Positions 1 to 56,514 are shown, counted from the first letter of the stretch. The stretch is 64,000 nucleotides of DNA from an uncultured Nitrospiraceae bacterium (GCA_963705105.1 CAVPIW010000007.1:292715-356714); one strand, 5' to 3'. Made by a program: numbers and translations. Notes: generated by a model not told the origin, from the letters alone.

Positions 1-427
1 CCCCCGCGCTCGACCAGCGGTATTGATCCGCTTTTAAGACGATCCCGGCTTTCACCGGATTATTCTCCACATATCGCACAGCCGCATAGAGATGCCGTTC
101 ATCCAGAACGCACGAGTAAAACCGCCCCTGCCAGAGATGTCCCCTTTGATCTTGCTTCGTGTTGATGTGCTGCGAATATCTCATATGAAGTGTGTTGAAG
201 GTCTTTGCCAGGGCATCATCTTCATGAGGGACGGCAATGAAGTGCACATGATTGTTCATCAGGCAATAGGCCCAGATGCTCAGAGAATATTTCCGGCTGT
301 ATAGCGTCAGCCAATCCAGATACCGGAGGAAATCGTCATCACTGTCAAAGACCCTCTGGCGGTAGTTGCCCCGCTGCGTGATGTGGTGAGGATATCCGAC
401 TGCAACCGCTCTTGCTATTCTCGGCAT
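1..427 (-). CDS. RAYT / IS200-like Y1 HUH transposase (runs off the left edge of the window)
   Basis: Manual translation from ATG 427: MPRIARAVAVGYPHHITQRGNYRQRVF...AYCLMNNHVHF...GHLWQGRFYS...VRYVENNPVKAG...YRWSSA. Contains the HUH motif (NHVH) and the typical RAYT motifs. Not in the ORF track because there is no stop codon in the window. Confidence 0.9.
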   Translation of the reverse strand, partial: MPRIARAVAVGYPHHITQRGNYRQRVFDSDDDFLRYLDWLTLYSRKYSLSIWAYCLMNNHVHFIAVPHEDDALAKTFNTLHMRYSQHINTKQDQRGHLWQGRFYSCVLDERHLYAAVRYVENNPVKAGIVLKADQYRWSSAG

Positions 428-655
428 GGTTCAATGCTATGGCACCACACCCCGTTATGTCAATAAATGGGCGCTGTCCCTCTTTATTCCCCGATACCGG
501 AGGAAATCGTCATCACTGTCAAAGACCCTCTGGCGGTAGTTGCCCCGCTGCGTGATGTGGTGAGGATATCCGACTGCAACCGCTCTTGCTATTCTCGGCA
601 TAGTTCAATGCTATGGCACCACACCCCGTTATGTCAATAAATGGGCGCTGTCCCT
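319..655 (+). repeat. Direct duplication of about 163 bp (319-481 and 493-655) covering the RAYT 5' end and upstream region
   Basis: Near-identical copies from gataccggagg to aataaatgggcgctgtccct, separated by 11 bp. Confidence 0.95.
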
Positions 656-717
656 AATTATGCGCAGTCCCAAGCCAAGCTAGAAATAAGTGATGCGAAG
701 AATTGCAGCCAGTCCAT
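656..717 (-). pseudogene. Truncated 5' end of a cassette gene (MDWLQFFASLISSLAW...)
   Basis: Starts just after the attC core GTTAGGG, with a GGGGA RBS-like sequence; cut off after about 16 codons at gcgcagtccc, a near copy of the RAYT end motif gcgctgtccc. Confidence 0.55.
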
Positions 718-737
718 AGTATCCCCGTGTCTTTGGC

Positions 738-824
738 CCCTAACGCAGAGTTGTGCCGCGCCGCCACCGCAACAACAGGAAACGGCGCGCCGTCCCCGGC
801 GTCGGCACGAACGACGTGTTATGC
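738..824 (-). other. attC integron recombination site
   Basis: Minus strand GCATAAC...GTTAGGG with an internal imperfect palindrome, directly after the stop of 828-1397; the inverse core matches the cassette start GTTATGC at 1394-1400. Confidence 0.85.
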
Positions 825-827
825 CGC

Positions 828-1397
828 TTATTGACTTGGTTTACAGCGAGCATGCAGCGCCCTTAAGAATTTTCTTGCGCCTACCAAACAGTTCGCCACA
901 AACTCTCGGTCAAGTTCATACCGCCCAAGAACGTTTTCTTTGCGCGGATCTTTGTATCCTTTTCGGTGTTTGAAAGCATTAATGGTTTTGCGGAGTTCCT
1001 CTACTTCCTTGCTACCGGGAAGCTCATCAAGCTTGATACTGTAGTGACTCTCTATCAGTCTGTGTAAGTCGTCTCGCTTTAAATCCCAAACCAACCGCAG
1101 TTTGTTCTTCTTCAATGGCTCCTTCGAGAAGGGCACCACTCCCAGACTGGATAGCTCCCACTCCACGAGGCTGTTTATTTCGTTTAAGGCGGCTCGCATT
1201 GCGAGACTTTCACTAGTTCGCGGACTGAAGAACGCATTGGCTTCTTCGTCTGGGTCTTTAAACCCTCCCGTTTGGGCACGCGAGATCAGGTCTCCATACT
1301 CGCTGTCTACTGAACGGTACACCCGTTCGAGGAAGGACTTCATCTCGTTTAATTCGATATCAATTGAAATCAGCGATCCCATTTCATGCTGAGGCAT
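828..1397 (-). CDS. Hypothetical gene-cassette protein
   Basis: 189-aa ORF, AT-richer than core genes, bounded by GTTATGC and an attC. Confidence 0.75.
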   Translation of the reverse strand: MPQHEMGSLISIDIELNEMKSFLERVYRSVDSEYGDLISRAQTGGFKDPDEEANAFFSPRTSESLAMRAALNEINSLVEWELSSLGVVPFSKEPLKKNKLRLVWDLKRDDLHRLIESHYSIKLDELPGSKEVEELRKTINAFKHRKGYKDPRKENVLGRYELDREFVANCLVGARKFLRALHARCKPSQ

Positions 1398-1441
1398 AAC
1401 AATGAGTTAAGCGGGTTCCCCGCTTGAACGATTGGTTGGGA
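1394..1441 (-). other. Very short attC-like site (48 bp)
   Basis: TCCCAAC-CAATCGTTCAAGCGG-GGAAC-CCGCTTAACTCATT-GTTATGC; L boxes resemble the classic GTTCAAGC/GCTTAACTC. Confidence 0.7.
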
Positions 1442-1495
1442 GTCACTCTGTCCGAATGTCAAGGGCTACCCCCTGTATTTTTCTCCTGCGGAGGA

Positions 1496-1747
1496 TCAGC
1501 GGCAAAAAGATGTTATTTGAAGTGCAGCCTCTATCGTGTCCGGCCCAAGGTCTTGACCCTCCGGCCAGCCGATACCGTTAAAGAACAGACCCACTTGCCT
1601 GAAGTATGTCTCGTCTTCAAGTCGCTTGAAAAAATCACCTCTGATATAGGGAGTTACATCAAAGACACCGCAGACCCCGTCTGAAAAAACAATCTCGACT
1701 TTTTTCCCTTCAATGGGTTTTACGCTTGTCACTTTCTTCATCATCAC
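1496..1747 (-). CDS. DUF2442 family protein (putative toxin-antitoxin partner)
   Basis: V..V.P...I.FSDG...FD...IGWPEGQDLGPDT pattern; downstream of a DUF4160-like gene. Confidence 0.8.
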   Translation of the reverse strand: MMMKKVTSVKPIEGKKVEIVFSDGVCGVFDVTPYIRGDFFKRLEDETYFRQVGLFFNGIGWPEGQDLGPDTIEAALQITSFCR

Positions 1748-1753
1748 TCCAAA

Positions 1754-2023
1754 TCACTCTAATGGTTTTATGGGCATAGGATTTTGCCCGCTCACCGCAA
1801 GGCGCCAATCTGTCATAAGGTCCTCCCGATGAATCTCAATCCACGCCTGAACCAGCCTCTGTTTGTTCTTGGGTATGCTTCCTTCGAGAACCTCACCATC
1901 TGCGATTGAAAAAACGGCGTCATCTTCTCCATAAGATGCGTGGAAATGCGGCAACTTGTGCTTCTTGTTGTCGTAAAAATACATATAAATGATTATTCCG
2001 AAGAACATTGAGATTGTCGGCAT
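1754..2023 (-). CDS. DUF4160 family protein (putative toxin-antitoxin partner)
   Basis: MPTISMFFGIIIYMY...HKLPHFHASY...WIEIHREDL..W; RBS AGGAGA upstream of the ATG at 2023/2026. Confidence 0.85.
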   Translation of the reverse strand: MPTISMFFGIIIYMYFYDNKKHKLPHFHASYGEDDAVFSIADGEVLEGSIPKNKQRLVQAWIEIHREDLMTDWRLAVSGQNPMPIKPLE

Positions 2024-2168: not shown

Positions 2169-3475
2169 CTACGTGCTGTTTCTCGTCAGGTGCACGACCG
2201 ATTCGACATGGTAGGTCTGGGGAAAGAAGTCGACCATTCTCGCCGATTGGACGGTGTAACGCACTGAGAGTTTCTTCAGGTCTCTTGCGAGTGTCGGGGG
2301 ATTGCACGAGACATAGACGATCCTTTCCGGTTCCATGGCGAGGACTGTCTGTATGACACGCTTTGTGAGACCCGTCCTCGGCGGATCGAGGATGAGCACA
2401 TCAATCCCTTCGGGGACCTGAAGACTCTCTGCCGCAGTCCTGACAAATCTGCAGTTCCCGATTCTGTTTCGCCTGCAGTTTCTGCGGCCGTCCCCGACGG
2501 CTTGGCTGTTTTCTTCGACGGCGATGACACGCAGGGCCTCGCGGGAGAGGGGAAGGGAAAAATTCCCCGCGCCGGCGTAGAGATCGAGGACCGACTTGCC
2601 CGTGAGGGGAGACAATTCCTGCAGGAGCGTCCTGATGAGGTCCCCGTTGAGGTCCCAGTTGCTCTGAAAGAAGGCGGCGCCGGAAAATGCGAAGACCAGC
2701 CCGTCCAGCCGGAGCTGCGATCGTTCCGCCCCGAGGGTCAGCCGATTACCGGCGGCGGTCGCGATCGTAACTCCCGCCAGGCCTGCGTCTATCAGACGGC
2801 GGGCCAGGTCCCTGAACATCGCCGGGATTGCACTGCTTTATCCGGCACTTTCAGGAAGCAGATGACTCCTTCACCCGCAGACAGGTGGAGTTCGAAGGGC
2901 GGGACGTCCCCTGTGCTCATCTCTTTGAGAACCGGTCCGACCACTGACAGAGAATCATTGATTTCGCGGCTCATGAGGAGACAGTGACTGACCGGGACGA
3001 GTTCCCGTGTATTTTCTCGGAAAAAACCGATCTCGGCAGCGGCGGTCTTGAATTGACCACGGTACCGGTGATGCCACGGGGGACCCGTGAGGGAGGGTAA
3101 AAGCTCCGTATGGATGCCCGCGATCCGGGCGAGGCAGTCGCGCAGCACCTGCTCTTTCATCGCGACCTGCTCGCGATATTCGATATACTGAAACTGACAA
3201 CCGCCGCAGATCCCGAAATAAGGGCAGGGAGGTGTGACCCTGAAGGGAGAGGCTTCGATGACCCTTGTCACCGTCGCCCGCGAAAAGTCCCTCCGCTCTT
3301 CATCGATCTCAGCTTCGACCGTTTCGCCGGGGATGGCCCCCCTTACAAGGATGACCTTGCCCCCCTTACGAAGCTGCGCCTGACCCCCACTGCCGTCAGG
3401 CGACCTTGCGAGGCAGTAGCCGCCGTAGACGGGGATTTCGGTCCTGACAGTCAGGAAGGGGTCATTTCCGCTCAA
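2169..3475 (-). pseudogene. rlmD: 23S rRNA (uracil-5)-methyltransferase RlmD/TrmA family, frameshifted near 2820-2830
   Basis: TRAM domain and CPYFGICGGCQ in 2792-3475; FFQSN, DLYAGAG, LDPPR, YVSCNP, DFFPQTYHVE in 2169-2819. The frameshift may be a sequencing error. Confidence 0.85.
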
Positions 3476-11397: not shown

Positions 11398-11550
11398 GAT
11401 TAGCGATGCAGTCGCATGAAAAGGCGGGGCTGAACTTCATTGGTGTCCAAGGTAACGTAACACGAGGACAGGGCATGCTTTCTTCGCAAAATAAACTCCC
11501 TTTCCTCATGAGCATGTCTTTGTTTTGAAAACATGTGTCTTCACAGGTAC

Positions 11551-11752
11551 ACCTTTCTGTTGCATGGAAAGGCGCGGCGAAGCACCTCAAAGCCTTGCTG
11601 AAGGCGACGATGAGCCTCGTCAGCTTCGTGTTTCAGGATTCCACTCTTTGTGTCATCGACCATTGGCGTATAGTTCATGATACAGGTGTCGCCGCAGCAA
11701 GGTTTTCGGCGCATACACCCCGCCTTCCAGAAAGCGTATGCAACCATAAGGT
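11551..11752. repeat. Palindromic intergenic element E1 (possibly nested in a degenerate outer copy at about 11405-11868)
   Basis: acctttctgttgcatggaaaggcgcggcg...ccttgctgaaggcgac / gtcgccgcagcaagg...caccccgccttcc...tgcaaccataaggt; another left end gcatgaaaaggcggggc at 11414. Confidence 0.85.
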
Positions 11753-11931
11753 ACACAGTGCGGCTCCCGCTGCGGCTTGCGCCTTCGTCTACCGCCGCCG
11801 TGAACATTACCCGTGAATTTTGCTTCAGAAACCACACCCCGTCCTCGTTTTCAAGGTCTCGCTGCACAATATCTGGACAAAGGTGAGGGGTATACATTGC
11901 GGTTATCATGGGATGAAATCAGGAGGCAATC

Positions 11932-12201
11932 ATGGACGTCAAGATCGAGACACCGTCGGAGGAGATGATCAGGGAGCGTAATGTGAGGTCCTGGCCTATC
12001 TGGGAGAAAGGGGTCTCACGGTTCGGCTGGCACTACGATCAGACCGAGGAGTGTTTTCTCCTGGAAGGCAGGGTCGTCGTCGAAACGAAGAACGGAGGCA
12101 GGGTCGAGTTTCAGAAGGGCGATTTCGTCACCTTTCCGAAGGGCCTCTCCTGCACGTGGGACATCAAGGAGCCGGTGAGAAAGCACTACAACTTCCGGTA
12201 G
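11932..12201 (+). CDS. Cupin domain protein (DUF861/EutQ-like)
   Basis: WPIWEK..S.F.WHY..TEECF.LEG.V...GDFVTFPKG..CTW. Confidence 0.85.
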   Translation: MDVKIETPSEEMIRERNVRSWPIWEKGVSRFGWHYDQTEECFLLEGRVVVETKNGGRVEFQKGDFVTFPKGLSCTWDIKEPVRKHYNFR

Positions 12202-12268
12202 ACATATCGGGTCGCTCCGATATGGGTGGGACACCGCGATCACCCGTTCCGGCTGCCGGCAAAGCGCC

Positions 12269-12757
12269 TCAGAGGGTGTAGAGCGTTTCGTCCCTGAGAG
12301 GGGCTTTTCTCCGGCCTTTCGCGGCGATCTTCCGCTGCCTGAAGGGCATGTCCTCTCCTTCGAGGAGGTCCCCCATCTCCGCCTCGATCTTGTCGGGGTC
12401 CTCCCCGGCTTCCATACGGCGGATCGCCTCCTCCATGCCCGATCCGAGATCGAGCCCCGTGGCGTCGCAGAGTTTTCGCATGAGACGGGCGGCCTGTCTG
12501 GGGTCCTCATCGTTGATCCCCTGTGCTTCCCGTTCCAGGAGGGACATGGCTTTTTCGATCTTCGACTCGTCCAGGTCCGGCATACCCGCATCGTCAGACT
12601 CTTTCAGTCCTCTGAGAACGGAGACCCTCGAGACGAGACGCCCGATGGGGCCTTTCCCGCATTTCGGGCAGAGAGGGCGCTTCTCCGTGTTGACCCTGGC
12701 AGAGAAGAAATTAAAAATCGTATTGCAGTCGCTGCAGAAGAACTCATAGATCGGCAT
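12269..12757 (-). CDS. FmdB family zinc-ribbon protein
   Basis: MPIYEFFCSDC...CPKCG; RBS GGAGG upstream of ATG 12757. Confidence 0.85.
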   Translation of the reverse strand: MPIYEFFCSDCNTIFNFFSARVNTEKRPLCPKCGKGPIGRLVSRVSVLRGLKESDDAGMPDLDESKIEKAMSLLEREAQGINDEDPRQAARLMRKLCDATGLDLGSGMEEAIRRMEAGEDPDKIEAEMGDLLEGEDMPFRQRKIAAKGRRKAPLRDETLYTL

Positions 12758-13139
12758 GGTTCTTCCTCCGGCGGCTACTGTTCCTTCGGAGCCGGGGGCG
12801 CCTGTTCCTTCGGAGCCGGGGGCGCGCCGTTTCCTCCGCATCCTGTGAGGGAGGGGGAGGATCGATGTAGCGGGACGTGTATTCCCCGAGAGGGCGCTCA
12901 AAGGTGTAGTAAAAGGGTTTGCGGACGAGTTCATGGGCCGTCTTTTTTACGCTCCTGCTCGTTGCGGCGAAGGGCAGGGCAAGGACAAAAATGGCAGCAC
13001 CGGCGATTGTCGCGGCAATGCCGAGGGGCCGTGATACGACGAGATCGCCGATCATCTCCGGCGTTTTGTCCGTTGCAAAGGCGGGGATTGCCGTCAGCAG
13101 GGTCACGAAACACATCAGGAGAGCAAGTCCCTTCATCAT
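12744..13139 (-). CDS. Hypothetical exported/membrane protein
   Basis: Signal peptide, D.VV.RPLG.AATI.G...F..ALPF...P..YTF.RPLG; RBS GAGGAGG; 24-bp tandem repeat at 12778-12825 in the tail. Confidence 0.7.
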   Translation of the reverse strand: MMKGLALLMCFVTLLTAIPAFATDKTPEMIGDLVVSRPLGIAATIAGAAIFVLALPFAATSRSVKKTAHELVRKPFYYTFERPLGEYTSRYIDPPPPSQDAEETARPRLRRNRRPRLRRNSSRRRKNHADL

Positions 13140-13197
13140 GATATATACCTCCTCACAAGGAACTTCTTTCTTTCCATTATACCCCAAAAACAGATTT

Positions 13198-13394
13198 ACT
13201 TTATCGGTGCAACACACTCCCGCGAAAGGCGGGGCGTATGCGCAGAAAACCTTGCTGCGGCGACACCGTAACTCTCACAGAAGACGACCTTTCAAGCAAA
13301 TGGCCGAAAAGTGAGCCTTTTTACTGACACTGACACTCACACTGACACTGTTTTTCAGAGCGCTTCGCCCCGCCTTTCCATGCAACTGAAAGGT
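13198..13394. repeat. Palindromic intergenic element E2 (type A interior, short)
   Basis: actttatcggtgcaac...gaaaggcggggcg ... cgccccgcctttccatgcaactgaaaggt; internal (CACTGA/CACTCA)n. Confidence 0.9.
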
Positions 13395-13466
13395 TTAGTG
13401 ACAGTGTCGGTGTGAGTGCCAGTCAAGGGAAGGTCCGGCCGTTCGGAGGAACGGCACCCGATATAA

Positions 13467-14294
13467 TCACTCGTCCACCCTTTCCCCCCAGACCTTCTGA
13501 CTGCGGGCGATCTTCTTTTTCACCGTTTCCCAGGTTTTCGTCACCAGGAACGAATCGGGCCATCGCCCGACCATGCGGCTGTACATCTCATAGGGCACGG
13601 CAAAGGTGATTTCATCGGGTTTCAGGAACTTACGGTCCGACGGGTCCCATCCGCCGATGACGGCCTTCAGTTTTCCCTCGGAGACGTACTTGAGCGGCCA
13701 TGTGGCGATGTTCGTGCAACCCGCGCCGAACGGGGACATGACCGCCTCGAAGTCGTTCGTCACAAATGTGGCGAGCTGATTCAGGCCGGCGATGATCTCC
13801 CCCCTGGCGAAGAAGATGACCACTTCCGGCTGCTCGCCGTCGCTGAAGTGACTGACCGACTTGAACACGCAGTAACGGGCCGGCGCAGGCCGGGGATCGA
13901 CGGTCCTGAAAAAGTCCCGCACCACATCGGGAGACGCGAGGTAATGCTCGCCCTCCATGACGCCCGGGATGCCGGAGGAGACGTAATAGGTGATGAAATC
14001 GAGCTGGGGCTTCAGAAAACCGAGATAGAAAGCGCCGCCGAGGCAACCGAAGTGGTCGCGGTCGAAAAAGGCGGCGGTCTTCTTCCTCCGTGCAAGCCAG
14101 ATCTTGCCGACGACGCAGGAGAAACCGGCAAAGAGGGCGTTGAAGTCGACCTTGCCCTGTTTTTCTTCTTCAGCCGACGGGAGGGTCCCCGGCTCGGGCA
14201 GGAACCCTTCTTCAGGCCGCTTATCCGTGTAGAACATGCCCATGGGCTCCTCCAGGAGACCAAGGGCGTCGAACAAACCTTTCGCATTTTCCAT
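13467..14294 (-). CDS. DUF169 family protein
   Basis: SCV..., FGCLGG...LGF, SPFGAGC, A.IGG.DPS.R pattern; RBS GGAGG. Confidence 0.75.
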   Translation of the reverse strand: MENAKGLFDALGLLEEPMGMFYTDKRPEEGFLPEPGTLPSAEEEKQGKVDFNALFAGFSCVVGKIWLARRKKTAAFFDRDHFGCLGGAFYLGFLKPQLDFITYYVSSGIPGVMEGEHYLASPDVVRDFFRTVDPRPAPARYCVFKSVSHFSDGEQPEVVIFFARGEIIAGLNQLATFVTNDFEAVMSPFGAGCTNIATWPLKYVSEGKLKAVIGGWDPSDRKFLKPDEITFAVPYEMYSRMVGRWPDSFLVTKTWETVKKKIARSQKVWGERVDE

Positions 14295-14315
14295 AACAAC
14301 CTCCCCCAAAACAAA

Positions 14316-14460
14316 GTGTCAGTGTGAGTGTGAGTGCCAGTGAAAGGAGACGTCATAAATAATTATCCCAAAAAAAAGTGTCAGTGTGAGTGTGAGTGCC
14401 AGTGAAAGGAGACGTCATAAATAATTATCCCCAAAAAAAAGTGTCAGTGACAGTGTGAGT
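14316..14460 (+). repeat. Tandem 62/63-bp unit (two copies plus a partial third) built on GTGTCA/GTGTGA hexamers
   Basis: gtgtcagtgtgagtgtgagtgccagtgaaaggagacgtcataaataattatccc(c)aaaaaaaa at 14316 and 14378, partial at 14441. Confidence 0.95.
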
Positions 14461-14462
14461 GA

Positions 14463-14695
14463 ACCTTAACGTTGCAATGGGACCTCCGGAAAGGCGGGGC
14501 GTATGCGCCACCCAATAAATTATTGAGTCATTGAGTCATTGAGTAATTGAGTAATTAAGTCATTGACGGCAGTCAACAGGCGCTGAACACCTGGAGAAGT
14601 CTCATCATCGCATTGGAAAGGCTTTGAACCATATCTGCCTTCCCGGGGCAGAGCCGCTGCCGGCGATGGCATCCAGGAGCCTCGCCCCGCTTTTA
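14463..14695. repeat. Palindromic intergenic element E3 (type B interior, internally deleted)
   Basis: accttaacgttgcaat...ggaaaggcggggcg, (TCATTGAG/TAATTGAG)n octamers, cctcgccccgctttt at the right end. Confidence 0.85.
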
Positions 14696-15778
14696 TCGGC
14701 TGCCGGCTGAGGGCGACCGGCTGTCTTTCGGCCTCTCTTTCGACTCGATGAAGATATCCACCTGCTGTCCGGCATAAACGGGAAAGTCGGGGGGAGTGAA
14801 ACGGTAGATGACCTGGAGCACCCGGACGTCGACCCGCTCCGTCGTGTTGCCGGTGAGCTGTCTCTTGGGAATGATGTAGGGATCGACGCGCTCGAATTCG
14901 AGGGGGATCTGCCTGTCCGTGTATCCCCGGAGGTAGGCGATGGCACGGGCGCCCTTCCGCACGTCCACCGCGTTGACCTCGTCGATGTCCGCCCTGATCT
15001 GGAGGCGGTCCGTCCGTCCCATGAGAACAGGCGATTCAGCCTGACCCGGGGCGATCCACTCGCCGGGCCGCACGTTGATCTGGAGGATGGCGCCGTCCTT
15101 CGGCGCACGCACGGTGTGCCACGAGAGGACCTGGGACGCCTCCTTCAGGGATGCCCTCTTTGCATTGAGTGCCGCTTCCTGCTCCCTGACCTCATATTCC
15201 CACGCGCCGGCTTTGACGGCGGCGAGGTTCGCCTTTGCCTCACCGAGGCTCGCCTCGGCGGCCTTGACCTGCTGACGCGTCTGATCGATGGCGTCCTGGC
15301 TGACCGATCCGGGATAGGCCTCCCAGGTCTTTTCGAGTCGCGCCAGCCGTGTTTTCAGGTCCGCCAGCTGCGCCTCCGCCCGCTCCACAGCCTGTTCAAG
15401 GGGCACGACATTTTCCGGTCTCGGCAGGTGTCGCAGGAGGGCGAGCCGCTCTTCCGCGGCCTTGACCTCTGAGGTCAGCCGCTCGACGAGGGCCTTCTGC
15501 GCACGGCCGTCAAGTTCGATCAGGGGGTCTCCCGTCCTGACCTGCTGGTTTCTGGACACGAAGATCTTCTCGACGAGGCCGGCCACCTGGGACTGGACGC
15601 GCACATTCTCTTCGGTGGACTCGATGATGCCTGACCCGGCGACGGATACGGGGAAGGGGCTTGCCGAGGGCGCGTGGAGCGGCGGCGGAGGGGGCTGCGT
15701 TTTGCCGCCGACGACAACGCGGTAGATGCCGAAGAGGATGCCGATGATCGCCAGGACAAAAAGGGCCTTATACTTCAT
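14693..15778 (-). CDS. HlyD/efflux periplasmic adaptor subunit
   Basis: N-terminal TM, biotinyl-lipoyl halves (V..GDPLIELD; VRAPKDG), coiled coil. Confidence 0.9.
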   Translation of the reverse strand: MKYKALFVLAIIGILFGIYRVVVGGKTQPPPPPLHAPSASPFPVSVAGSGIIESTEENVRVQSQVAGLVEKIFVSRNQQVRTGDPLIELDGRAQKALVERLTSEVKAAEERLALLRHLPRPENVVPLEQAVERAEAQLADLKTRLARLEKTWEAYPGSVSQDAIDQTRQQVKAAEASLGEAKANLAAVKAGAWEYEVREQEAALNAKRASLKEASQVLSWHTVRAPKDGAILQINVRPGEWIAPGQAESPVLMGRTDRLQIRADIDEVNAVDVRKGARAIAYLRGYTDRQIPLEFERVDPYIIPKRQLTGNTTERVDVRVLQVIYRFTPPDFPVYAGQQVDIFIESKERPKDSRSPSAGSR

Positions 15779-16485
15779 ACTGGAACCTCCTGAGCCTTTT
15801 TATGACTGATTTCGGTGACGCGTCCGTCCACGAGATGGGCGATTCTGTCCGCATAGGGAATGATCCTGTTGTCATGGGTGACGACAATGAGACACCGGTC
15901 GGGGCTGAGGGCCCGTTTGCGCATGAGATCCATCACTTTCTGGCCCGTTTCCGTATCGAGGGCTGCTGTCGGCTCATCGCAGATGAGGATCTGGGGTTCG
16001 TGCACGATGGCCCGCGTGAATGCGACCCTCTGTTTCTCTCCCGTCGAGAGGAGACCGATGGCATTGGACGCCCGCGCCTCGAGGCCCACTTCGCCGAGGT
16101 ATTGAGAGGCCCTCCGGAGTGAGTCATCCCAGGGCCCTTCATTGATGAGGAGCGGTATGGCCACATTCTCCGCCGCCGTCATGTGGGGGAGAAGATTGTA
16201 CTCCTGGAACATGAACCCGATTTTCTTCGCCCTCAGGGCCGTTTTGTCGGCATTCGAAAGGGCCGTTATATCCGTCCCGAGGACTGTGACCGTTCCCCTC
16301 GTCGGAGCAAGGACGCCGCCGATGATGCTCAGCAGGGTCGTCTTGCCGCTCCCGGAAGGACCCATGATCATGAAGAGCTCCCCGAAGTGGATGTCAAGGT
16401 TGACGTCTCTCAGCGCATGGATCGTCGCCTCTCCTCTGCCGAAGCTCTTGTTCACGCCCCGCAAGGCTATTGCGATGTCAGGCAT
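15775..16485 (-). CDS. ABC transporter ATP-binding protein (MacB/LolD/DevA type)
   Basis: GPSGSGKT, LSTGEKQRVA, ICDEPT, VTHD. Confidence 0.95.
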   Translation of the reverse strand: MPDIAIALRGVNKSFGRGEATIHALRDVNLDIHFGELFMIMGPSGSGKTTLLSIIGGVLAPTRGTVTVLGTDITALSNADKTALRAKKIGFMFQEYNLLPHMTAAENVAIPLLINEGPWDDSLRRASQYLGEVGLEARASNAIGLLSTGEKQRVAFTRAIVHEPQILICDEPTAALDTETGQKVMDLMRKRALSPDRCLIVVTHDNRIIPYADRIAHLVDGRVTEISHKKAQEVPV

Positions 16486-16486
16486 G

Positions 16487-17627
16487 TCAACCCCGGAAAA
16501 CGTCCGCCGGATCGATGCGGAGGACGCGGTTCAGGACGACGACGGCGGCGATGCCGCAAATGACGACGGTCATGACGAAGGAACCGATGAGGACATGCGG
16601 AGGGGTGTATGCCGCGTAGTTGGGCAGATTCTCCAGCAGCACCTTCAGGAGGATGCTCGCAACTCCGACGCCTATGCCGTATCCCTGGATGCCGACGACG
16701 GCGCTCTGCAGGACCACCATGCGGACCAGCGTCCATGAATTCACCCCCATGGCCTTGAGGGCGGCGAACTGCTTGAGGTTCTCCAGTCCGAAGGTGTGGA
16801 AGGTCTGGCCGGTGACGGCGGCGCCGACGATAAAGCCGAGAAGGGTGATGATGCCGAAATTCATCCCGATGCCCGTCTGGGTGAGATAATACCGGACCGT
16901 CATCCAGCTCAGTTCGTCCTTCGTCAGGGCGAGGAGACCCGTTTTCTGCCGTATTTCCTCCTTGAACTCAGCCATCCCGACGCCCTCCTTCGGCTTGAGC
17001 AGGACGAACGTGATCTGTTTCCTCTCGGGAGGCGTGAATTCGAGGGCCCTTTCGAAGGTCGTGAAGAGGATGGGCAGATCGAAGAGACTCGTCTCGACGC
17101 TGACAGTCCCGGCGATCCGGGCCTGCCGGTCATTCATCTCGAAGGTATCGCCCACCTTCGGCATGCTGAGCTTGCGGAGCCCCCGATCATTGACGAGGAC
17201 GGCATTCGCCTGGTAGACATCATCTATTTTGCCGGAAAGGACCCGCGAAGGGACGGCCGACGAGGGATGCGCTGTCGAGGCCGAAAAGACGCACTGTCTG
17301 GAAGGACCCGTTCGGCAGTCGCGCCCTCAGGTTCCCGATGTAGAGGGGCACGGCCCAGTCGACGCCGGATATACTCCTGATCCTGCTCAGGGCGGCATTG
17401 GGAAGGGGCTGGACGTCATCGATGTACTTGATGCCGGGATCGGTCACCCAGACGGGCGCCCCGATCGTCCGGATGTCGGCCGTCGTCCTCCTGAGGATGC
17501 CGAGAAAGACGGACACCATCTGAACGACGAGGAAGACCGAGAAGGTGATGCCGGCGATGACGGCGAAGTATTTGGCCCTGTCTCCCATGAGCATCTTGAG
17601 GGCCACACGATCCAGTCCCTTCATCAT
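16487..17627 (-). pseudogene. ABC permease (FtsX/DevC type), +1 frameshift near 17250
   Basis: Removing one C from CGTCCCTTCG joins the two ORFs as ...GRPSRVLSGKIDDVYQANAVLVNDRGLRKLSMPKVGD...; may be a sequencing error. Confidence 0.8.
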
Positions 17628-17666
17628 GTTTCAGCATATCACAGGGACGGCGCCGTTTCAAATCAT

Positions 17667-21290: not shown

Positions 21291-21306
21291 GGCATGAAAC
21301 GGGAGG

Positions 21307-22200: not shown

Positions 22201-22326
22201 GGTTTCTATGATACCACAGCACAGGACGGAATCCGCACTTTCCGCTCACTGACACTGACACTCACACTGTCACTGAATGCAGACTTGCGTGATGCCCCTG
22301 TCTTGAATTACATTTATAAAATAATT

Positions 22327-25020
<2,694 letters not shown>

Positions 25021-25024
25021 GAAA

Positions 25025-27307: not shown

Positions 27308-27312
27308 ATTTT

Positions 27313-49742: not shown

Positions 49743-49790
49743 GGGGAGAAGTCCCCCGACAGTGGTTCCTGCCCATTTGAAGCCGCAAAA

Positions 49791-50453
49791 AACCACAGGG
49801 CCGGACATCTTTTCCAGGGCAGATACAAGGCCGTTGTTGTTGACGCCGACGCATACGCCGGAGAGCGTTCACGGTACATTCACCGGAACCCTGTAAGGGC
49901 AGGGCTCGTCGACCTGCCGGAGGATTATCCCTGGTCGAGCTATGCGGCATACGCCGGCAAGACGAAATCACCTGCCTGGCTGACAACAGACCGGCTGCTG
50001 CACTATTTTGGCAGGCGACCTTCCTCTGCCCGGCATGCCTATCGGGCATTCGTCGAGGCAAAGACAGGCGGCATGCAAGGAAGCCCTCTGAAAGATTCCG
50101 TCGCTTCCTCGATACTCGGCAGTGCTGCATTCAGAGACGACATACGGGAGAAATACCTTGGGGGCCGGAAAAAAGACCGGGATGTGCCTGCGCTCGGAGC
50201 GTTAAGCAGAGTGAGGCCTGAAGAAATCATGGAGAAGGTCGGGGGCGAGTTTCAGGGGCAACCTGATCTGGCGAGGAAAGTCGGCATCTACCTGAGCCAC
50301 AGATACGGGGGATTGTCGCTCAGGGAAATCGGATGGCATTTCGGCGTGTGGGAATCGGCGGTTTCACAGGCGAGCCGCAGATTTCAGGCGACCCTTGAGG
50401 ACCGTGAGCTAAGGAGAAGGGTGGACAACGTACGAAGATCCCTGATTCTTTAG
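49791..50453 (+). pseudogene. 5'-truncated RAYT/Y1 transposase with a C-terminal HTH
   Basis: In frame with ORF 50073: GHLFQGRYKAVVVD...RYIHRNPVRAG...YPWSSY...IYLSHRYGGLSLREIG.HFG..ESAVSQ; the N-terminal HUH part is missing. Confidence 0.85.
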
Positions 50454-50539
50454 TATGTCATATGTGTAGACCCCAAATCTGGCCACGAAGCGCCCCCATG
50501 ATTCACATGTTTCGGATGTCAATGAGACAGGATCGGAAG

Positions 50540-50944
50540 TTACAAACCGGGCAGAACGCGATATTTCATGGTATTGAAGTGGGTGTCAAAGGAAAAGGCT
50601 GTGTCAATACGCAACCTTTCCATGAATGCGAAGCTGGTGCAGTCTGTATAACTGAAGTCAACGTCCCTGTATTTCAGGAAGATTTCCCAGGCCCTTTCCT
50701 CATCTCTATCCTGAACAGCAGCAAGACTGGCAAAAGCACTGTCTTTCAGTCTTTTGCCGAATTCGGCAGCCACTTTCCAGCCTAACCTGACCCTCAGGAG
50801 GGTTGCCGTTTCATCGAATACAAAGTTGGTCGTTACCAAAGGAATCGGGTTTGCTGCGAGAAATTCAGAGGCAGCGTGATGTTTGGGGTCTTTGCTGTCA
50901 ACCAGCGCATACCACGCACCGGTATCAACAAAGATCCGTCTCAC
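50540..50944 (-). CDS. vapC: PIN-domain toxin (VapC family)
   Basis: IFVDTGAW, DET, SYTDCTSF, SFDTHF. Confidence 0.9.
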   Translation of the reverse strand: MRRIFVDTGAWYALVDSKDPKHHAASEFLAANPIPLVTTNFVFDETATLLRVRLGWKVAAEFGKRLKDSAFASLAAVQDRDEERAWEIFLKYRDVDFSYTDCTSFAFMERLRIDTAFSFDTHFNTMKYRVLPGL

Positions 50945-51189
50945 TTCTTCTTCCCATAAAGGTATCTATCGTGATCGCTCGCGACCGCAGAGCCGTCGCC
51001 CGCACCTAAGCCGATCACCCCAAATAGAGGGTCTTTCCCCCTGACAGGGGTCTCGGTCGCAAACTTTTCTGAAATGAGCTCTCTGACAATTGCAGACAGG
51101 CTCTTCTTCTTCTTTCTCGACAACTCAAGCAATCTCTGATATTGCCACTGCTCAAGCGATATTTGGGTTCTATGTTTAATGCCTTTCAT
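50941..51189 (-). CDS. Ribbon-helix-helix antitoxin (VapB-like)
   Basis: RTQISL...SLSAIVRELI...HDRYLYG; overlaps the vapC start. Confidence 0.85.
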   Translation of the reverse strand: MKGIKHRTQISLEQWQYQRLLELSRKKKKSLSAIVRELISEKFATETPVRGKDPLFGVIGLGAGDGSAVASDHDRYLYGKKK

Positions 51190-51243: not shown

Positions 51244-51488
51244 AGGTCGGGGGCGAGTTTCAGGGGCAACCTGATCTGGCGAGGAAAGTCGGCATCTACC
51301 TGAGCCACAGATACGGGGGATTGTCACTCGCCTGTGACACCGCCGATTCCCCGACGCCGAAATGCCGTCCGATTTCCCTGAGAGCCGCAGATTTCAGGCG
51401 ACCCTTGACGACCGTGAGCTAAGGAGAAGGGTGGACAACGTGCGAAAATCCCTGAATCTTTAGTATGTCATATGTGTAGACCTGACCC
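51244..51488 (+). repeat. Second copy of the RAYT 3' end (50236-50474) with an internal 56-bp inversion
   Basis: Flanks near-identical to the first copy; 51327-51382 is approximately the reverse complement of 50319-50374. Confidence 0.9.
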
Positions 51489-51735
51489 GCAGACTCTCTC
51501 ACTCTTGTGCAGACCGCAAGACGCCAGGGTATCCATCCGCGGGAATTCCTGCATATCCTCCATGCCGCCGATACAGCTACCGCACAGGCAGCGCTGTATA
51601 ACAATTCAAGCTGACAAGTGACAAGTAAAATGAAGGACAGTTCTGCGACATGACTTTGCCCCGACCTTGAGGGTTCAGGTCCAAAAGGGGTGAGATCTCT
51701 CATGCGACTGAACAGCACAGGGACTAAACTGTTAC
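51489..51735 (+). mobile_element. IS66-like right-end remnant
   Basis: ...TLVQTARRQGIHPREFLHIL...* (stop 51614) resembles an IS66 TnpC C-terminus; ends ctaaactgttac (GTAA terminus). Confidence 0.6.
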
Positions 51736-51810
51736 CCACAGTGGGCGGTGGACCCCAAAAACTGGACAGTGTGCTAAGCTCTGATTCAGACCACTCATGG
51801 AGGATCTGAG

Positions 51811-52092
51811 ATGAGCAAGAAACGAAAGCAACACAGTTCCCAATTCAAGGCGAAGGTCGCGCTGGCCGCATTACAGAACGAAGAGACCACCGCTCAACTG
51901 GCCAGTCGCTTCGACATCCACCCGACCATGATCTCCACCTGGAAGCGGCAGCTGCTCGACAGCGCCGCTGAGCTTTTCGACAAGAACCACAAGTCCCGCA
52001 AGCAGGTCGAGGGCCAGTTCGATGAGCTCTACCGGCAGATTGGCCGGCTCAAGGTAGAAAACGATTTTTTAGCACGAAAGCTCGGCTCTTGA
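51811..52092 (+). CDS. IS3 transposase OrfA
   Basis: FKAKVALAAL...HPTMISTWK; T-run near the orfA/orfB junction. Confidence 0.9.
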   Translation: MSKKRKQHSSQFKAKVALAALQNEETTAQLASRFDIHPTMISTWKRQLLDSAAELFDKNHKSRKQVEGQFDELYRQIGRLKVENDFLARKLGS

Positions 52093-52946
52093 GCAGCCAG
52101 CAGCGAAAGCAGATGATCGAACCTGAACTTCGCGAGCCGAGCATCTCCCGCCAATGCCAGTTGCTGGGATTGAGCCGGTCCTCGTTCTACTATGAGCCGT
52201 GCCCGATTAATCCCGAGGACCTGGACCTCATGCGCCTGATCGACGAGCAGTACCTGAAGACCCCGACCTACGGCAGCCGGTCGATGGCGCGGCATTTCCG
52301 CCGACAGGGCCGTAAGGTCAACCGCAAACGCATCCAGCGGCTGATGCGACTGATGGGCATCGAGGCGATCTACCCCAAGCCGCACACCAGCCGGCCCCAT
52401 CCGGAGCACATAATTTATCCCTATCTGCTCAGAGACCTGAGGATCGATCATGCCAACCAGGTGTGGGCTACCGATATCACCTACGTTCCCATGGCACGTG
52501 GCTTTATGTACCTGGTGGCGGTCATGGACTGGCACAGCCGCAAAATCCTGTCCTGGCGTCTTTCCAATACCTTGGACTCGGACTTCTGCAATCAGGCCCT
52601 CCAGGAAGCCCTGAGCCGCTATGGGGCACCGGAGATTTTCAACACGGATCAAGGAGCACAGTTTACCAGCAAAGGGTTCACTCAAATCCTCAAGGACCAC
52701 GGAGTCGCCATCAGTATGGACGGCCGCGGTAGGTGCCAGGACAACATCTTTGTTGAACGGCTATGGTGGACCATCAAACATCACTACCTTTACCTGCATT
52801 CGTTCGGCGGCGGCTCTGAGCTGCGTCAGGGGTTAACCAACTGGATACGCTTTTACAACGAACAGCGCGGGCACTCTTCTCTTGACGACCGTACCCCGGA
52901 TGAGGTTTACTATGGACTGCCTCACCCATTCGCCGAGGCTGCCTGA
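52089..52946 (+). CDS. IS3 transposase OrfB (DDE)
   Basis: WATDITY, NTDQGAQF, DNIFVERLW. Confidence 0.92.
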   Translation: MSSQQRKQMIEPELREPSISRQCQLLGLSRSSFYYEPCPINPEDLDLMRLIDEQYLKTPTYGSRSMARHFRRQGRKVNRKRIQRLMRLMGIEAIYPKPHTSRPHPEHIIYPYLLRDLRIDHANQVWATDITYVPMARGFMYLVAVMDWHSRKILSWRLSNTLDSDFCNQALQEALSRYGAPEIFNTDQGAQFTSKGFTQILKDHGVAISMDGRGRCQDNIFVERLWWTIKHHYLYLHSFGGGSELRQGLTNWIRFYNEQRGHSSLDDRTPDEVYYGLPHPFAEAA

Positions 52947-53023
52947 TGCTTCATAAAGAATTTAACAATGAACTCAGAGCTTATCCCACCCATCAGGCTG
53001 TCCAAACAATAGGGTCCACCGCC

Positions 53024-53123
53024 GTGAGCAAGGCATCGGCAAGGCTGCGTGAAGAAATGAAGAGAAACAAAGAACTGTTAGAGCGTGTCGGGAACCTTGT
53101 TTCACAATTCAAGACATGACACC
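53024..53123 (+). pseudogene. 3' end of a third RAYT-type gene (HTH tail plus end motif)
   Basis: (T)VSKASARLREEMKRNKELLERVGNLVSQFKT* then cacc; continues from 51736-51743 across the IS3. Confidence 0.6.
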
Positions 53124-53149
53124 TTATTCCTCTGACAAGAGCATAACAT

Positions 53150-54121
53150 TTAAGTCGACTCAAGGGATCTTGCCAATGCCTCAATATCTGTCATCCCAAA
53201 ATCAGTCACCAGGACCACCCGCGTGGAAGCGGCGAGATCTTTGGCTGCCTTCGTGTATCCGCTTTGCGATATGACCACCGCATAGTCAGTCTTGTAGTGA
53301 GACCGCGCAGCTGCGGCTTCTTGGACCGCTGTGATCCCTGCGGGCATCTCTCGTCCTTTGCACTGCACCGCGTATCTGAGCCCATCCTTCGTAGCGACTA
53401 TATCACACCCAAAGTCACCCGAAACACTCGTGAACTCAACCTCAAAGCCCAGCTCGCTAAGTCTGTCCCCACATGACTTTTCAAAGTCACGACCGATCTG
53501 ACTGGCAGGCCTTGTCAGGGGGAGTTGCAACCCATCAGCTATGATCCGTCTCGTGATACACAAAGCCTCGTTGGCGAGACGCGAAGCTCTATAGGATGAA
53601 CCGTACTGAGTGGCAAGCCCATCGTAGCGACTCCTGAAGTTCCGCTCAAGAAGTGTACTCATTGCATCACGGGCTTCCAGCCAATTAATCTCATCCGTAA
53701 AATCATTGCGTATCAATACCCGTGAGAGTTGCCGCCTGAAACCCTCCGCATGTTCGGCGTAGAAGCTGTTTCCTGTAACATAGTCGGAGCAGATTCGGTA
53801 AGCCAGAATTCCGAGCTGGAATTCCAACATGCCTTCGACAGAACCCAACTCAGGCTTCGGCAAGGCTTCGTATTCCTTGCGAAGGCTCCGAACAGTGCCT
53901 GCATCGAAGAAGGCACAGACATCGTGAAGGCCGGTCAATCGGCTTATCAGCTCTCGGAGAATACGTAGACCATCGTCGCTGAGCGACGGAGTCTCAAACG
54001 CTTCAAGCTCACTTGCGGCAGACAGAATTATCTCACGACGAGTTTCCATCAGCTCCAGTTGGGCTGGGGTCATGAAGAACAGGATCTGCACCACCTCATG
54101 AATACGCGTTTGATTGGGCAC
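53150..54121 (-). CDS. Cassette protein with a C-terminal Mrr-like restriction endonuclease domain
   Basis: GRDFE...GDFGCDIVA...AVQCK...AVQE...YT..AKDLA. Confidence 0.8.
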   Translation of the reverse strand: MPNQTRIHEVVQILFFMTPAQLELMETRREIILSAASELEAFETPSLSDDGLRILRELISRLTGLHDVCAFFDAGTVRSLRKEYEALPKPELGSVEGMLEFQLGILAYRICSDYVTGNSFYAEHAEGFRRQLSRVLIRNDFTDEINWLEARDAMSTLLERNFRSRYDGLATQYGSSYRASRLANEALCITRRIIADGLQLPLTRPASQIGRDFEKSCGDRLSELGFEVEFTSVSGDFGCDIVATKDGLRYAVQCKGREMPAGITAVQEAAAARSHYKTDYAVVISQSGYTKAAKDLAASTRVVLVTDFGMTDIEALARSLEST

Positions 54122-54165
54122 TTGTACTACCTCCCATAGATATTCCAGAACCGAGTTGTTCTATC

Positions 54166-54256
54166 GTCTAACGGTCCGGGCGCGCGGCGCCGGCCCCGAA
54201 AGTATTAAGAAACATGGCGCGCTGACCCCGGCGTCCGCACGCCCCGGTTGTTAGGT
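54166..54256 (-). other. attC site
   Basis: ACCTAAC...GTTAGAC, overlapping the upstream gene's stop; shares GACGCCGGGG..GCGCGCC with the attC at 738-824. Confidence 0.85.
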
Positions 54257-54742
54257 GGCGCATGCAAAGCGCACCAAGAGCCAACACACAGCACCAAAAC
54301 CCACGAGAAAAACGGCCCGGAAAAACCAAAGCAACTGAAGTTTCTCCTCCGGGTTATCAGGGACCTCAGCTACCCCTTTCCCGTATCGCCAAGCGTTCAT
54401 AAACTCTTTTGTGAAATGTTTCCGTGTTTCAGCGAGACGCTTTCTCCGTACTTGGATTGAGTCCGCGAGTACCCCCACTAGATACCAACCAGATGCCATT
54501 ACACTGACCGCCGCACCAAAAAGCACGAAATATTCAACTTGATTCAGAGTGTCGAGAATCCTCGGAATTGAGACGATCGCAGCGAACAGCAATAGGCCAT
54601 AGTTTGTGACTTGCCACTGTTGCTTCTTAAATGAATTGATTTCTGACACGCACGCGGAATACAGAAGCCTCAGTTCGTCGTTCTTCTGTTTTTCGTTTTC
54701 ATTTTGTTCCGCCATAGGCTCCTCCACGGTTGTGCCACCCAA
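54251..54742 (-). CDS. Hypothetical membrane cassette protein
   Basis: Three hydrophobic segments; flanked by attC sites; true start probably MAEQN at about 54715. Confidence 0.75.
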   Translation of the reverse strand: MGGTTVEEPMAEQNENEKQKNDELRLLYSACVSEINSFKKQQWQVTNYGLLLFAAIVSIPRILDTLNQVEYFVLFGAAVSVMASGWYLVGVLADSIQVRRKRLAETRKHFTKEFMNAWRYGKGVAEVPDNPEEKLQLLWFFRAVFLVGFGAVCWLLVRFACAT

Positions 54743-54818
54743 ACGTTCAGTTCACCGGCGTACAAGCAGGAGCGCGAAGCGACGCTGCTTGTACGACCGG
54801 TGCAACGCGATGCTATGC
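54738..54818 (-). other. attC site (degenerate cores)
   Basis: GCATAGC...CACCGG.CGTACAAGCAG..CTGCTTGTACG.CCGGTG...GTTTGGG long hairpin. Confidence 0.8.
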
Positions 54819-54848
54819 GTCGTCCGTCCAGTACGGCAGGGGGGATAT

Positions 54849-55781
54849 CTATCGTACTCTACTTCTGCCGTTGTCTCGCTTTGATAGTGAATCTTCAAGG
54901 GATTCAAGTGACTTTTCCCACCAACCCTCCTTGCTTCCATCACCAAGGTGGACTCTCACTGTGGGGTAGAAGTGCTTTCGATGGCTGGCCTGAACACGCC
55001 AAAACCATTGATGGTCTTTTCGATCAGCCGCAATCAGCTCGACCGTAATGCCCAGTGCAGCGGCGATATGCGTGGTGGTCGTCGAGATCGTTACGAGGTA
55101 GTCCAATCCGCGGATTGCTTCGATCAGCGCATCGAGAGAGGTCTCAGTCTTTGCCTCGAGGATCTCGTCTGAAAGGATACGCACCCCACGCCTGTTAGCA
55201 TCACCATCTGGATCCGCGACAGCGACTTTACGCTGAAGCGAAATGAAGTCGGCATCAATACCGTTCAGAAGCGGTAGCAACTCCTCTACCGGAACGGACT
55301 TCGCAGCGATAGGTCCACTGTTCGATACGCTGGCCCAAGCTAGTCCCACTCGTAGGCGCGGTTTGCTCTTCGAAGGGAGTATGGTTCCTATGGTCGCCAG
55401 TGGGACAAACGGTTCGTCCAACAAATTGCCCATTAGTGCCTGCCGCAGAATTGCAAGCGGAGGTCTTCCTTCGTTGTCATCTCGGCGCAGCTTCGGCAGA
55501 AAGGCTAAATCATGCTTCAGGATTGAACAGACCTGTGCACAAGCAAAAACCTGGACGGGAATTTTAGATGTACCAGCGTGCCTCTTAAGGAGGGACGCGA
55601 CCAGCAGTTCTTCTCCCCAACCTTGCGCTCGCGGAAAGCTCAGTCGGAATGGCCCTCTAAGATCGACACGATCGTCGTGCCACTCTGGATCCTTATCGAG
55701 TTTGGCAAGTCCGCTTTCGAACGCGCCCGAGGCGAGATCTCGGAATCCGGCATTCATTTTGTCATCGATGACGTCGTTCAC
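54849..55781 (-). CDS. Cassette protein with a glycosyltransferase family 9-like fold
   Basis: QGWGEEL, RVGLAW, FISLQ, LDYLVTISTTTTHIAAALG. Confidence 0.6.
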   Translation of the reverse strand: MNDVIDDKMNAGFRDLASGAFESGLAKLDKDPEWHDDRVDLRGPFRLSFPRAQGWGEELLVASLLKRHAGTSKIPVQVFACAQVCSILKHDLAFLPKLRRDDNEGRPPLAILRQALMGNLLDEPFVPLATIGTILPSKSKPRLRVGLAWASVSNSGPIAAKSVPVEELLPLLNGIDADFISLQRKVAVADPDGDANRRGVRILSDEILEAKTETSLDALIEAIRGLDYLVTISTTTTHIAAALGITVELIAADRKDHQWFWRVQASHRKHFYPTVRVHLGDGSKEGWWEKSLESLEDSLSKRDNGRSRVR

Positions 55782-55784
55782 GAC

Positions 55785-55835
55785 GCACGTCGAAGGCGAA
55801 GCCCGCTTGCGGTGCGGCCCTCTCGACCTCCATGT
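55785..55835 (-). other. Degenerate attC remnant (group II intron target)
   Basis: Hairpin before the intron 5' end; core decayed to GACGTGC, but the adjacent TGCGTCGT matches the downstream inverse-core flank at 54812-54823. Confidence 0.5.
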
Positions 55836-56450
55836 GTACGCCCGGCATGGGCGTGAGCTTATGGGGTGAAAGTCCCTTGTACGAGAACCTGAGAGTGTTC
55901 ATACTAATGGATGCTATCACAAGTACGAGCCGAAGGCAAGGGCGTCTCCGCGAGGAGGGGTCTGAGGGAAGCCTTAGTGCGAACGTGCGAGCTGGATCCT
56001 GCCCCGGACTTGATCCGGGGAACAGAAACCGCATACAAGGCTCAGTCTCCGGGCGGGTTGGCACAACGAAGTCCGTGGGTTCAGGGGATAGGGTAAATGC
56101 GGCGGTTGTGCACAGAAAGTTCACGTTCTTATCCGGGGAGATCTGCGTGTCAGGCGACAGAAAGTTCATGAGCAGAATCCGGACGAGGTCTATCCGGTTT
56201 ACCAATGACCCGGCGCATCCGTCCGCTGTGGGCAGATGCGCGTCTCCTTTTAGAGAAACACAAAGCAGATAACATCTCATGAGCATTCCCGGAGCGCCGA
56301 CTGTGGAAACATATCCGGTCAGCACGCAGAAGTCAGCAGACGGCATAGTACTTCCGGGCGACTGGAAGGAAGGCCTGAACGTGGAAATGAGCGGGGCACC
56401 CAATGAGCTCGATGTCGGCGCTGAATCCGACCGACGGAGCCGAATGAGGC
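55836..56450 (+). mobile_element. Group IIC intron, 5' fragment (no RT ORF, no domain V/VI)
   Basis: GTACGCCCGGCATGGGCG...GGGTGAAAGTCCC, agccgaaggcaagggc, cttatccggggagatctg, gcagaagtcagcagacggcatagta...gaaggcctgaac; opposite to the cassette orientation. Confidence 0.85.
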
Positions 56451-56514
56451 GTGTCATGCAAGACTGTCCCCTCAATCCTGTCTCAGTGCAGTCTATCGTC
56501 AGCAGAATGTTTCG

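Follow-up and report, generated by a model that had tools for sequence, protein, structure and literature searches.

The 64,000-nt window analysed here, from the genome of an uncultured Nitrospiraceae bacterium (GCA_963705105.1 CAVPIW010000007.1:292715-356714), carries part of an intact TIRtron, a Y1-type HUH transposase gene lying between terminal inverted repeats (TIRs), together with remnants of related elements. The genome is called G000 below, C-numbers denote its contigs, and the window corresponds to C7:292715-356714. TIRtron elements are mobile, and it is probable that their ends are cut outside the TIR, hop, bracket resident genes and can carry them. A first-pass annotation had described seven related motifs as the ends of an HUH-driven gene capture system in which REP-associated tyrosine transposases (RAYTs; REP, repetitive extragenic palindromic) splice in foreign single-stranded DNA (ssDNA), including integron cassettes with their attC sites. 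The motif is indeed the end of a Y1/HUH family and a real breakpoint, and such ends can bracket or carry non-element DNA; splice-in of foreign ssDNA or attC cassettes was not borne out.

The end motif as a terminal inverted repeat

All seven motif strings were recovered at their positions (motifs 1 to 7, from left to right; Table 1). Motif 1 lies upstream of the intact 221-aa Y1 gene, and its inverted partner was found at C7:292460, just beyond the Y1 stop and 254 nt before the window start; the motif is therefore a TIR, and the single plus orientation that had been attributed to it does not hold. An internally deleted copy of the element, with both TIRs, lies 700 bp further left of the intact one.

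The genome scan that had been proposed was made with a weight matrix trained solely on 49 TIRs from relatives' Y1 genes, and it returned 40 matches of at least 18 bits in G000, vs 6 with the genome reversed and 1 with it shuffled. Motifs 1, 2, 5 and 6 score 29.8, 32.6, 18.1 and 16.5 bits, levels at which the reversed and shuffled genomes yield 0/0, 0/0, 6/1 and 15/3 matches, with motif 6 the weakest. The ungapped matrix does not recognise motifs 3 and 4 (-1.9 and -13.4), which are read as internally deleted TIRs: by eye, motif 3 corresponds to the TIR of the Y1 gene at C6:957386-958412 with a deletion, and motif 4, which ends a Y1 remnant, equals motif 5 minus a short internal stretch. Motif 7 (-10.1) was rejected as a TIR or junction, since alignments of intron homologues, from four other genomes and from three further G000 copies, run straight through it and it codes for the opening residues of a group II intron reverse transcriptase. 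Four motifs are clear TIRs and two are degenerate, so that six of the seven are intact or decayed TIRtron end repeats; to this extent the motif marks junctions as had been claimed, motif 7 being the exception. The neighbours were also correctly described (the 3' end of an IS66 insertion sequence (IS), PIN and DhiT toxin-antitoxin (TA) modules, and an intron remnant), except that the truncated cassette gene at 670-717 has no homologue among the 301 genomes searched and remains a reading by sequence.

Mobility and the position of the element end

Contigs of four public sequencing runs (X1 to X4, from four studies) were compared with C7:289500-296500, the region of the left locus. In one X4 contig the flanks of the deleted element are connected by 36 other letters in its place: an empty site in which no target duplication is seen, 36 bp are replaced, and the element's share includes 9-10 nt beyond each TIR. 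Intact and deleted elements are also present in runs X3 and X2, where different flanks begin 5 nt from a TIR, on its outer side. TIRtron elements are mobile, because an independent contig preserves an empty site and near-identical copies occupy different sites. For the left island as a whole no empty site was found: 14 rlmD flanks lack the Y1 gene, DhiT and the left response regulator, with one weak TIR score inside rlmD, and synteny is lost.

The end of the element lies 5-11 nt outside the GGG of the TIR. In 15 near-identical pairs at different sites, the numbers of nt common outside GGG are 0, 3, 5, 5, 6, 6, 6, 7, 7, 9, 9, 9, 9, 9 and 11 (median 7), and only 0.3% of 6652 unrelated pairs reach 9 nt. 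Many ends also carry what we term a stutter, in which the outer flank and the first TIR bases are repeated in tandem, most units starting 5-10 nt outside. Scored with a 9-letter word, stutter was present at 14 of 114 ends, vs a mean of 0.6 and a maximum of 4 in 500 swaps that preserve word and flank composition, and at 0.2% of shifted positions; the counts are 9/48 for ends in relatives and 3/40 in G000, and none of the IS256 (0/33) or IS3 (0/9) ends has it. The outer 6 nt pair better with the inner arm of their own TIR than with those of swaps (84 unique combinations, 0/2000; kinship uncorrected). Of 73 TIR sites in G000, 13 listed pairs share sequence beyond the TIR, two of them as palindromic dimers, and the duplications are polar: 11 of the 13 TIR-anchored pairs start at -19 to +6 and extend 48-585 nt inward.

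These footprints could in principle be passive debris, left by IS-like TIRtrons that pile up in dispensable DNA where host slippage and microhomology deletions act, enzyme-free, on the G-run and AT tract. The loci do hold IS3, IS66, IS256 and intron remnants as well, the outer flank is low in complexity, and microhomologies are present both at the motif 5 junction and at the internal deletions of a deleted copy at locus L064 (L-numbered loci come mostly from other genomes or metagenomes; L207 and L238 are G000 regions). We nevertheless regard this explanation as unlikely: composition-preserving swaps do not reproduce the stutter, which is absent from IS256 and IS3 ends and present with GC-rich outer flanks too (L027, L031, L033), and the duplications are polar.

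Bracketing of resident genes

At L062 the dprA-topA-xerC region contains an element whose end recurs, as an 8+36-nt copy in the same orientation, 2.1 kb outward on the other side of topA. The bracketed topA is native there, so it is the end that moved to topA. The same bracket layout surrounds a Fic gene at L106. At L064 the stretch from the Y1 gene to the far TIR holds a passenger of 249 aa, whose RNA_ligase match (E 4.9e-5) stays under the Pfam threshold. A 276-bp deleted copy 3.3 kb away has both TIRs, pieces of the passenger and different flanks; it is the one case, local and in another genome, that suggests movement of the same passenger with both ends to a second site. The end fragment across native topA and the passenger copy of L064 are among the reasons to think that TIR ends likely hop and bracket resident DNA. 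In G000 itself, a 600-bp duplication on C13 (97.7%) comprises a TIR and 585 nt of non-element DNA, with 4.25 kb between its copies, and in the window a vapBC pair (770 nt) lies between an end fragment and a fuller end. Where the order of events can be read, namely at the X4 empty site and in the dprA-topA-xerC locus, the end arrived in resident DNA and not the reverse, contrary to the splicing order first suggested.

Other TIR arrangements were recorded alongside these. At L062:3235-3262 the TIR end appears to give topA a new in-frame start after replacing its first codons. A 775-aa M6-family metalloprotease with two P-domains (C12:356145-358830, L207:5145-7830) lies between two back-to-back TIR dimers with 10-11 nt spacers; the gene was not found in 34 family genomes, its best homologues (~50%) belong to distant lineages, and no syntenic relative that could supply an empty site for the block was found among 250 genomes. 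C13:15884-22452 (L238) holds three direct TIR copies of one family, two of which stand next to an end from another TIR family, each across the same 8-nt spacer, and WYL, HepT/MNT and DUF433 genes lie between the copies. In metagenomes, back-to-back TIR dimers were found at 6 loci, five of them from one REP-like family among ordinary genes and none in cassette arrays; at L232 and L234-L237 the dimer, back to back around an 8-nt loop, is a dispersed REP-like repeat lying between ordinary genes.

Proposed mechanism and points of doubt

We propose that the HUH (Y1) enzyme would cut one strand about 6-10 nt outside the TIR and, if it follows general HUH chemistry, be held on the element's 5' end by a 5'-phosphotyrosine (Corneloup et al., 2021; PMC8266576). 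A TIR-headed fragment (25-600 nt) or the whole element might then come free by loose cutting or release on the inner side, and the freed end would rejoin a 3'-OH on the same strand, often nearby. On this scheme, stutters would be hops of zero length, brackets would be hops of 0.8-5 kb, and cargo elements would arise once the inner TIR is lost. Base pairing between the outer 6 nt and the TIR's AT-rich inner arm is possible, as is TIR binding by the C-terminal tail (RGRP or helix-turn-helix, HTH). We infer, by analogy, that the Y1 protein performs tyrosine-dependent cleavage and joining of ssDNA at the TIR. The footprints specify both a substrate and where the cut is predicted (5-11 nt outside GGG), and the window locus supplies an intact enzyme with its ends.

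A number of observations weigh against end-hopping as set out above. The empty site comes from one contig, with 40 nt on its shorter side. One near-identical pair shares 0 nt outside GGG, which a host deletion could explain, and a host deletion could also produce the motif 5 junction, where the TIR edge meets IS66 on a 5-nt microhomology. No conserved dinucleotide was seen by eye at stutter starts, single TIR hairpins do not fold significantly (z -1.5 to +1.0), and the pairing covariation carries no kinship correction. Cargo without an inner TIR occurs in just 1 of 80 long loci (L064), where the internal deletions of the deleted copy fall on microhomologies, and all passenger co-movement found is local (<5 kb). 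In 53 family genomes the L064 passenger has 1 homologue, with no Y1 match and no TIR core beside it. A rule that the truncated copy always lies outward had to be dropped, L076 having a truncated copy beyond the element's far end, and the idea that TIRs travel with the M6 gene was likewise abandoned, since 0 of 14 homologue loci carry TIRs. The duplication joint at 481-493, finally, is bridged by no contig among those listed from runs X1-X4.

The unbridged joint also speaks for the duplications being assembly artefacts, as does a frameshift in rlmD that matches 2 letters missing in X1 and X2 contigs. Such an origin is highly improbable: the copies differ from each other (2/166 nt on the left, 86% identity on the right), an X1 contig covers window 570-959 with 0 differences, a stretch that takes in the junction of the second copy and the variant specific to it, and other genomes show the same patterns. 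Public-run contigs span the junctions of motifs 2 and 3.

A broader proposal is that TIRtrons are widespread cross-phylum HUH transposons that capture genes by end-hopping as a routine route: one end would be copied beside resident DNA, the new outer end and the far end would move as a unit, and TA and defence islands would be built and shuffled over repeated rounds. This proposal, under which bacteria would have a means of capture other than integrons, ISCR read-through and DDE composite transposons, is tentative and somewhat doubtful; should end-hopping routinely carry genes, it would be an uncounted route of island building and horizontal transfer.

Relation to known HUH systems

The elements are placed by their motifs and TIRs among the TIRtrons or TIRYTs (TnpA-Y1 subclass 2.1, RAYT Group 1), a family known since 2013, and the notion of a new RAYT splice-in system is not supported: the family is not new, REP flanks are missing, and the array at 53-63 kb is explained by two integron integrase (IntI) genes. 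TIRtrons were described as Y1 genes between TIRs fitting GGGGWSAS (Di Nocera et al., 2013; PMC3733652), and TIRYT was equated with TnpA-Y1 subclass 2.1 in a study whose table maps the subclass to RAYT Group 1 (Quentin et al., 2018; PMC6006769; for Group 1, Bertels et al., 2017; PMC5581495). Quentin et al. (2018; PMC6006769) rank subclass 2.1 second in size among the Y1 subclasses, with 14.9% coverage, and consider more analysis necessary. A literature search, to which subscription papers were mostly closed and supplements unseen, found no assay of this subclass.

The Y1 HUH core with NHVH, W[EQ], Y..NP and a proximal SS is present; in the 221-aa protein the residues are H60-V-H62 (NHVH), W99 (WQ), Y119 (YVENNP) and WSS, with a C-terminal PRGRP. 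The tail of the left gene is common to its relatives, as expected for a 2.1.1 extension or a 2.1.2 HTH/Bac_DnaA_C tail, and the right remnant matches Bac_DnaA_C with E 7.8e-4 (below the Pfam cut-off) and a profile of relatives' tails with E 1.5e-6. The four intact Y1 genes of G000 all have a pair of GGGGWSAS-type TIRs, and 22 of 28 relatives' Y1 loci have a GGG-type inverted pair, with one end only in five and another repeat in one. The TIR pattern of the left element's family occurs at no fewer than 121 loci in many phyla plus one archaeal record, a set unfiltered for chance matches except in the pairing test (107/120 kept); among the loci listed there are whole elements of ~735 bp, deleted two-ended forms and solo TIRs. 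A C-terminal GRP/RGRP motif, which we take to be AT-hook-like, is conserved across the 221-aa class (the protein of window 1-427 and its relatives) and could bind AT tracts of the TIR.

The three papers and the present data agree, in the text open to us, on NHVH, WQ, Y..NP and SS, on a C-terminal extension or DnaA-C-like HTH, on solo, dimeric and grouped TIRs in the genome, and on the lack of REP flanks; the empty site, the position of the end, the stutter, the end hop and cargo are not described in those portions. REPtron enzymes (TnpA-REP groups 2/3) resemble TIRtrons in their HUH chemistry and 5'-phosphotyrosine, in cutting 5' and 3' of the bound site, and in strand transfer and the spread of short repeats, whereas they require a GTAG guide and cut at CT/CA, according to the accessible sections of Corneloup et al. 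(2021; PMC8266576). The TIRtrons here are without GTAG; unlike in REPtrons, the gene is itself transferred from phylum to phylum, and distance from the TIR sets the end. REPtron RAYT identity was rejected, the flanks showing TIRs and by eye no GTAG-footed hairpin, with an NF047646 score of 71.7, below the cut-off of 80.

With the IS200/IS605 group (IS608), TIRtrons share the Y1 core, the lack of target duplication and possibly base-pair guidance at the end. In IS608, however, the two subterminal hairpins differ from each other and share one strand, and the target word is fixed, whereas TIRtrons have inverted repeats and a junction that varies by several nt; IS200/IS605 identity (short TnpA, Y...Q, asymmetric subterminal hairpins) is ruled out by the 221 aa, YVENNP and inverted ends. 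An HUH enzyme working between inverted repeats thus fits neither the IS608 nor the REP model. A classical TIR insertion sequence was rejected as well, no target-site duplication being present between the flanks (by eye) or at the empty site; the IS256 and IS3 copies of the window do carry one. One-ended transposition by IS91/ISCR and capture by Helitrons involve larger rolling-circle HUH enzymes with distinct ori and ter ends. These systems resemble TIRtrons in having an HUH enzyme, one fixed and one loose end, and adjacent DNA that is carried along, but a TIRtron has a TIR at either end and would capture DNA by way of end copies.

In prochlorosin clusters, subclass 2.1 TnpA-REP genes likewise occur as full copies and 3' fragments scattered among variable genes. 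A role in recombination was proposed there, with a note by the authors withdrawing the causal claim, and, unlike for the TIRtrons here, inverted repeats were not found, as far as the accessible preprint text goes (Laurenceau et al., bioRxiv 10.1101/2020.03.09.984088).

Integron cassettes and intron remnants

G000 has two intact IntI genes outside the window (C12:170610 and C5:226825). They explain the attC arrays of the window (737-2023 and 53143-62930): most likely the resident IntI enzymes built these arrays, and TIRtron pieces interrupted them on landing. An integron, or an integrase-less array (CALIN) served by IntI in trans, accounts for attC arrays and needs no HUH enzyme, and TIRs are neither attI nor attC sites. 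The X4 contig that carries motif 3 with the TA pair and an attC departs from the window sequence at 1398, the attC crossover; motif 3 therefore rides inside a cassette. We also considered vapBC as an opened cassette circle and rejected it, its ends not rebuilding an attC fold. Integron-like capture, with a fixed entry site and serial, excisable, motif-bounded cassettes, was not seen.

Intron remnants were used as a proxy for attC neighbourhood; two home-made attC finders missed every known attC of the window. TIR clusters, counted at a 17.5-bit cut that left out some TIRs recognised by eye, lie near 3 of 11 intron-remnant loci vs 0.77 expected (P 0.03), and IS256 near 1 of 11 (P 0.36). The clustering fits either targeting or survival in dispensable DNA.

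Against this background the splice-in idea, in which Y1 joins incoming foreign ssDNA, attC cassettes included, at an end motif and the TIR acts like attI, appears decidedly unlikely. It would accommodate the vapBC and 4.25-kb C13 blocks between an end fragment and a full end, the M6 gene between two TIR dimers, and the TIR clusters near introns. The same layout, however, encloses native topA in L062, and the empty site shows an element arriving between existing flanks. The IntI genes, the failure of the vapBC ends to rebuild an attC, the position of motif 3 inside a cassette and the intron origin of motif 7 all point away from it too.

One group II intron family has left remnants at eleven G000 loci, including window 55832-56507, and those copies that were read are truncated or internally deleted. 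Two solo TIRs (C10:164200-164245 and C9:208996-209018) have their inner edge joined to group II intron DNA, at two different intron positions, and the outer side of the C10 copy cuts an Rhs gene.

Features of the window

Table 1. Features at the left and right TIRtron loci of the window (positions from the first nucleotide of the window).
Position	Strand	Feature	Evidence or remark
1..427	-	Y1 HUH transposase (TIRYT, subclass 2.1), 5' two-thirds of intact 221-aa gene	PF01797 E 2.8e-14; runs on to G000 C7:292479
457..492	-	Upstream TIR of intact element (motif 1, with -35-like TTGACA) and short outer flank	Relatives' elements match out to 485-491
490..662	-	Second copy: TIR and 162 nt of Y1 5' end (motif 2), direct orientation	2/166 nt differ from 316-481
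670..717	-	Probable truncated 5' end of cassette gene, cut at TIR outer edge	Sequence reading alone
737..826	-	attC site	Read by eye; parts of 739-827 match 6 other genomes, 77-88%
828..1441	-	Cassette gene (189 aa, no family) and attC at 1394-1441	Fold z -3.7
1455..1472	-	Degenerate TIR-like relic (motif 3) inside TA cassette	Bridged by X1 and X4 contigs
1496..2023	-	DhiT/DUF2442 TA pair	Profile matches
49743..50474	+	Long Y1 gene, 5'-truncated, DnaA-C-like HTH tail, ended by shortened TIR (motif 4)	Relative L032 has same tail and full TIR
50540..51189	-	vapBC-type TA pair between two Y1 3'-end copies	PIN E 8.5e-15
51244..51488	+	Second Y1 3'-end copy and TIR (motif 5)	86% identical; internal inversion 51327-51382
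51489..51738	+	IS66-type transposase 3' end and inverted repeat	Cut at TIR outer edge, 5-nt microhomology
51744..53023	+	IS3-family element, later insertion	Profile match
53024..53123	+	Short Y1 3'-end fragment and degenerate TIR (motif 6)	88% identical to C6:407907-408007; protein match weak, E 0.34
53143..62930	-	CALIN: Mrr-type nuclease, FRG, other cassettes, two IS256 copies	Sequence and profile matches
55832..56507	+	Group II intron 5' remnant; motif 7 (56451-56472) is its reverse transcriptase gene start	Homologue alignments

The two IS256 copies in the cassette array (58825-60195 and 61254-62624) are near-identical, and more than 12 copies occur genome-wide. A sequence search of the PDB gave no match. 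The frameshift in rlmD (window 2169-3475) lies near 2828, where run X1 and X2 contigs are 2 letters shorter; it is probably an assembly error, and because it coincides with the missing letters, the assembly probably contains small indel errors. Two related small membrane-protein genes without a Pfam family lie at 62931-63998 and are repeated at three further places in G000. An intergenic repeat family of 50-250 bp is present in many copies in window 11550-31270 (e.g. 25101-25406, 27313-27942, 30879-31275), and a relative of these repeats at L177:1405-1638 has very high contig depth in 4/4 runs.

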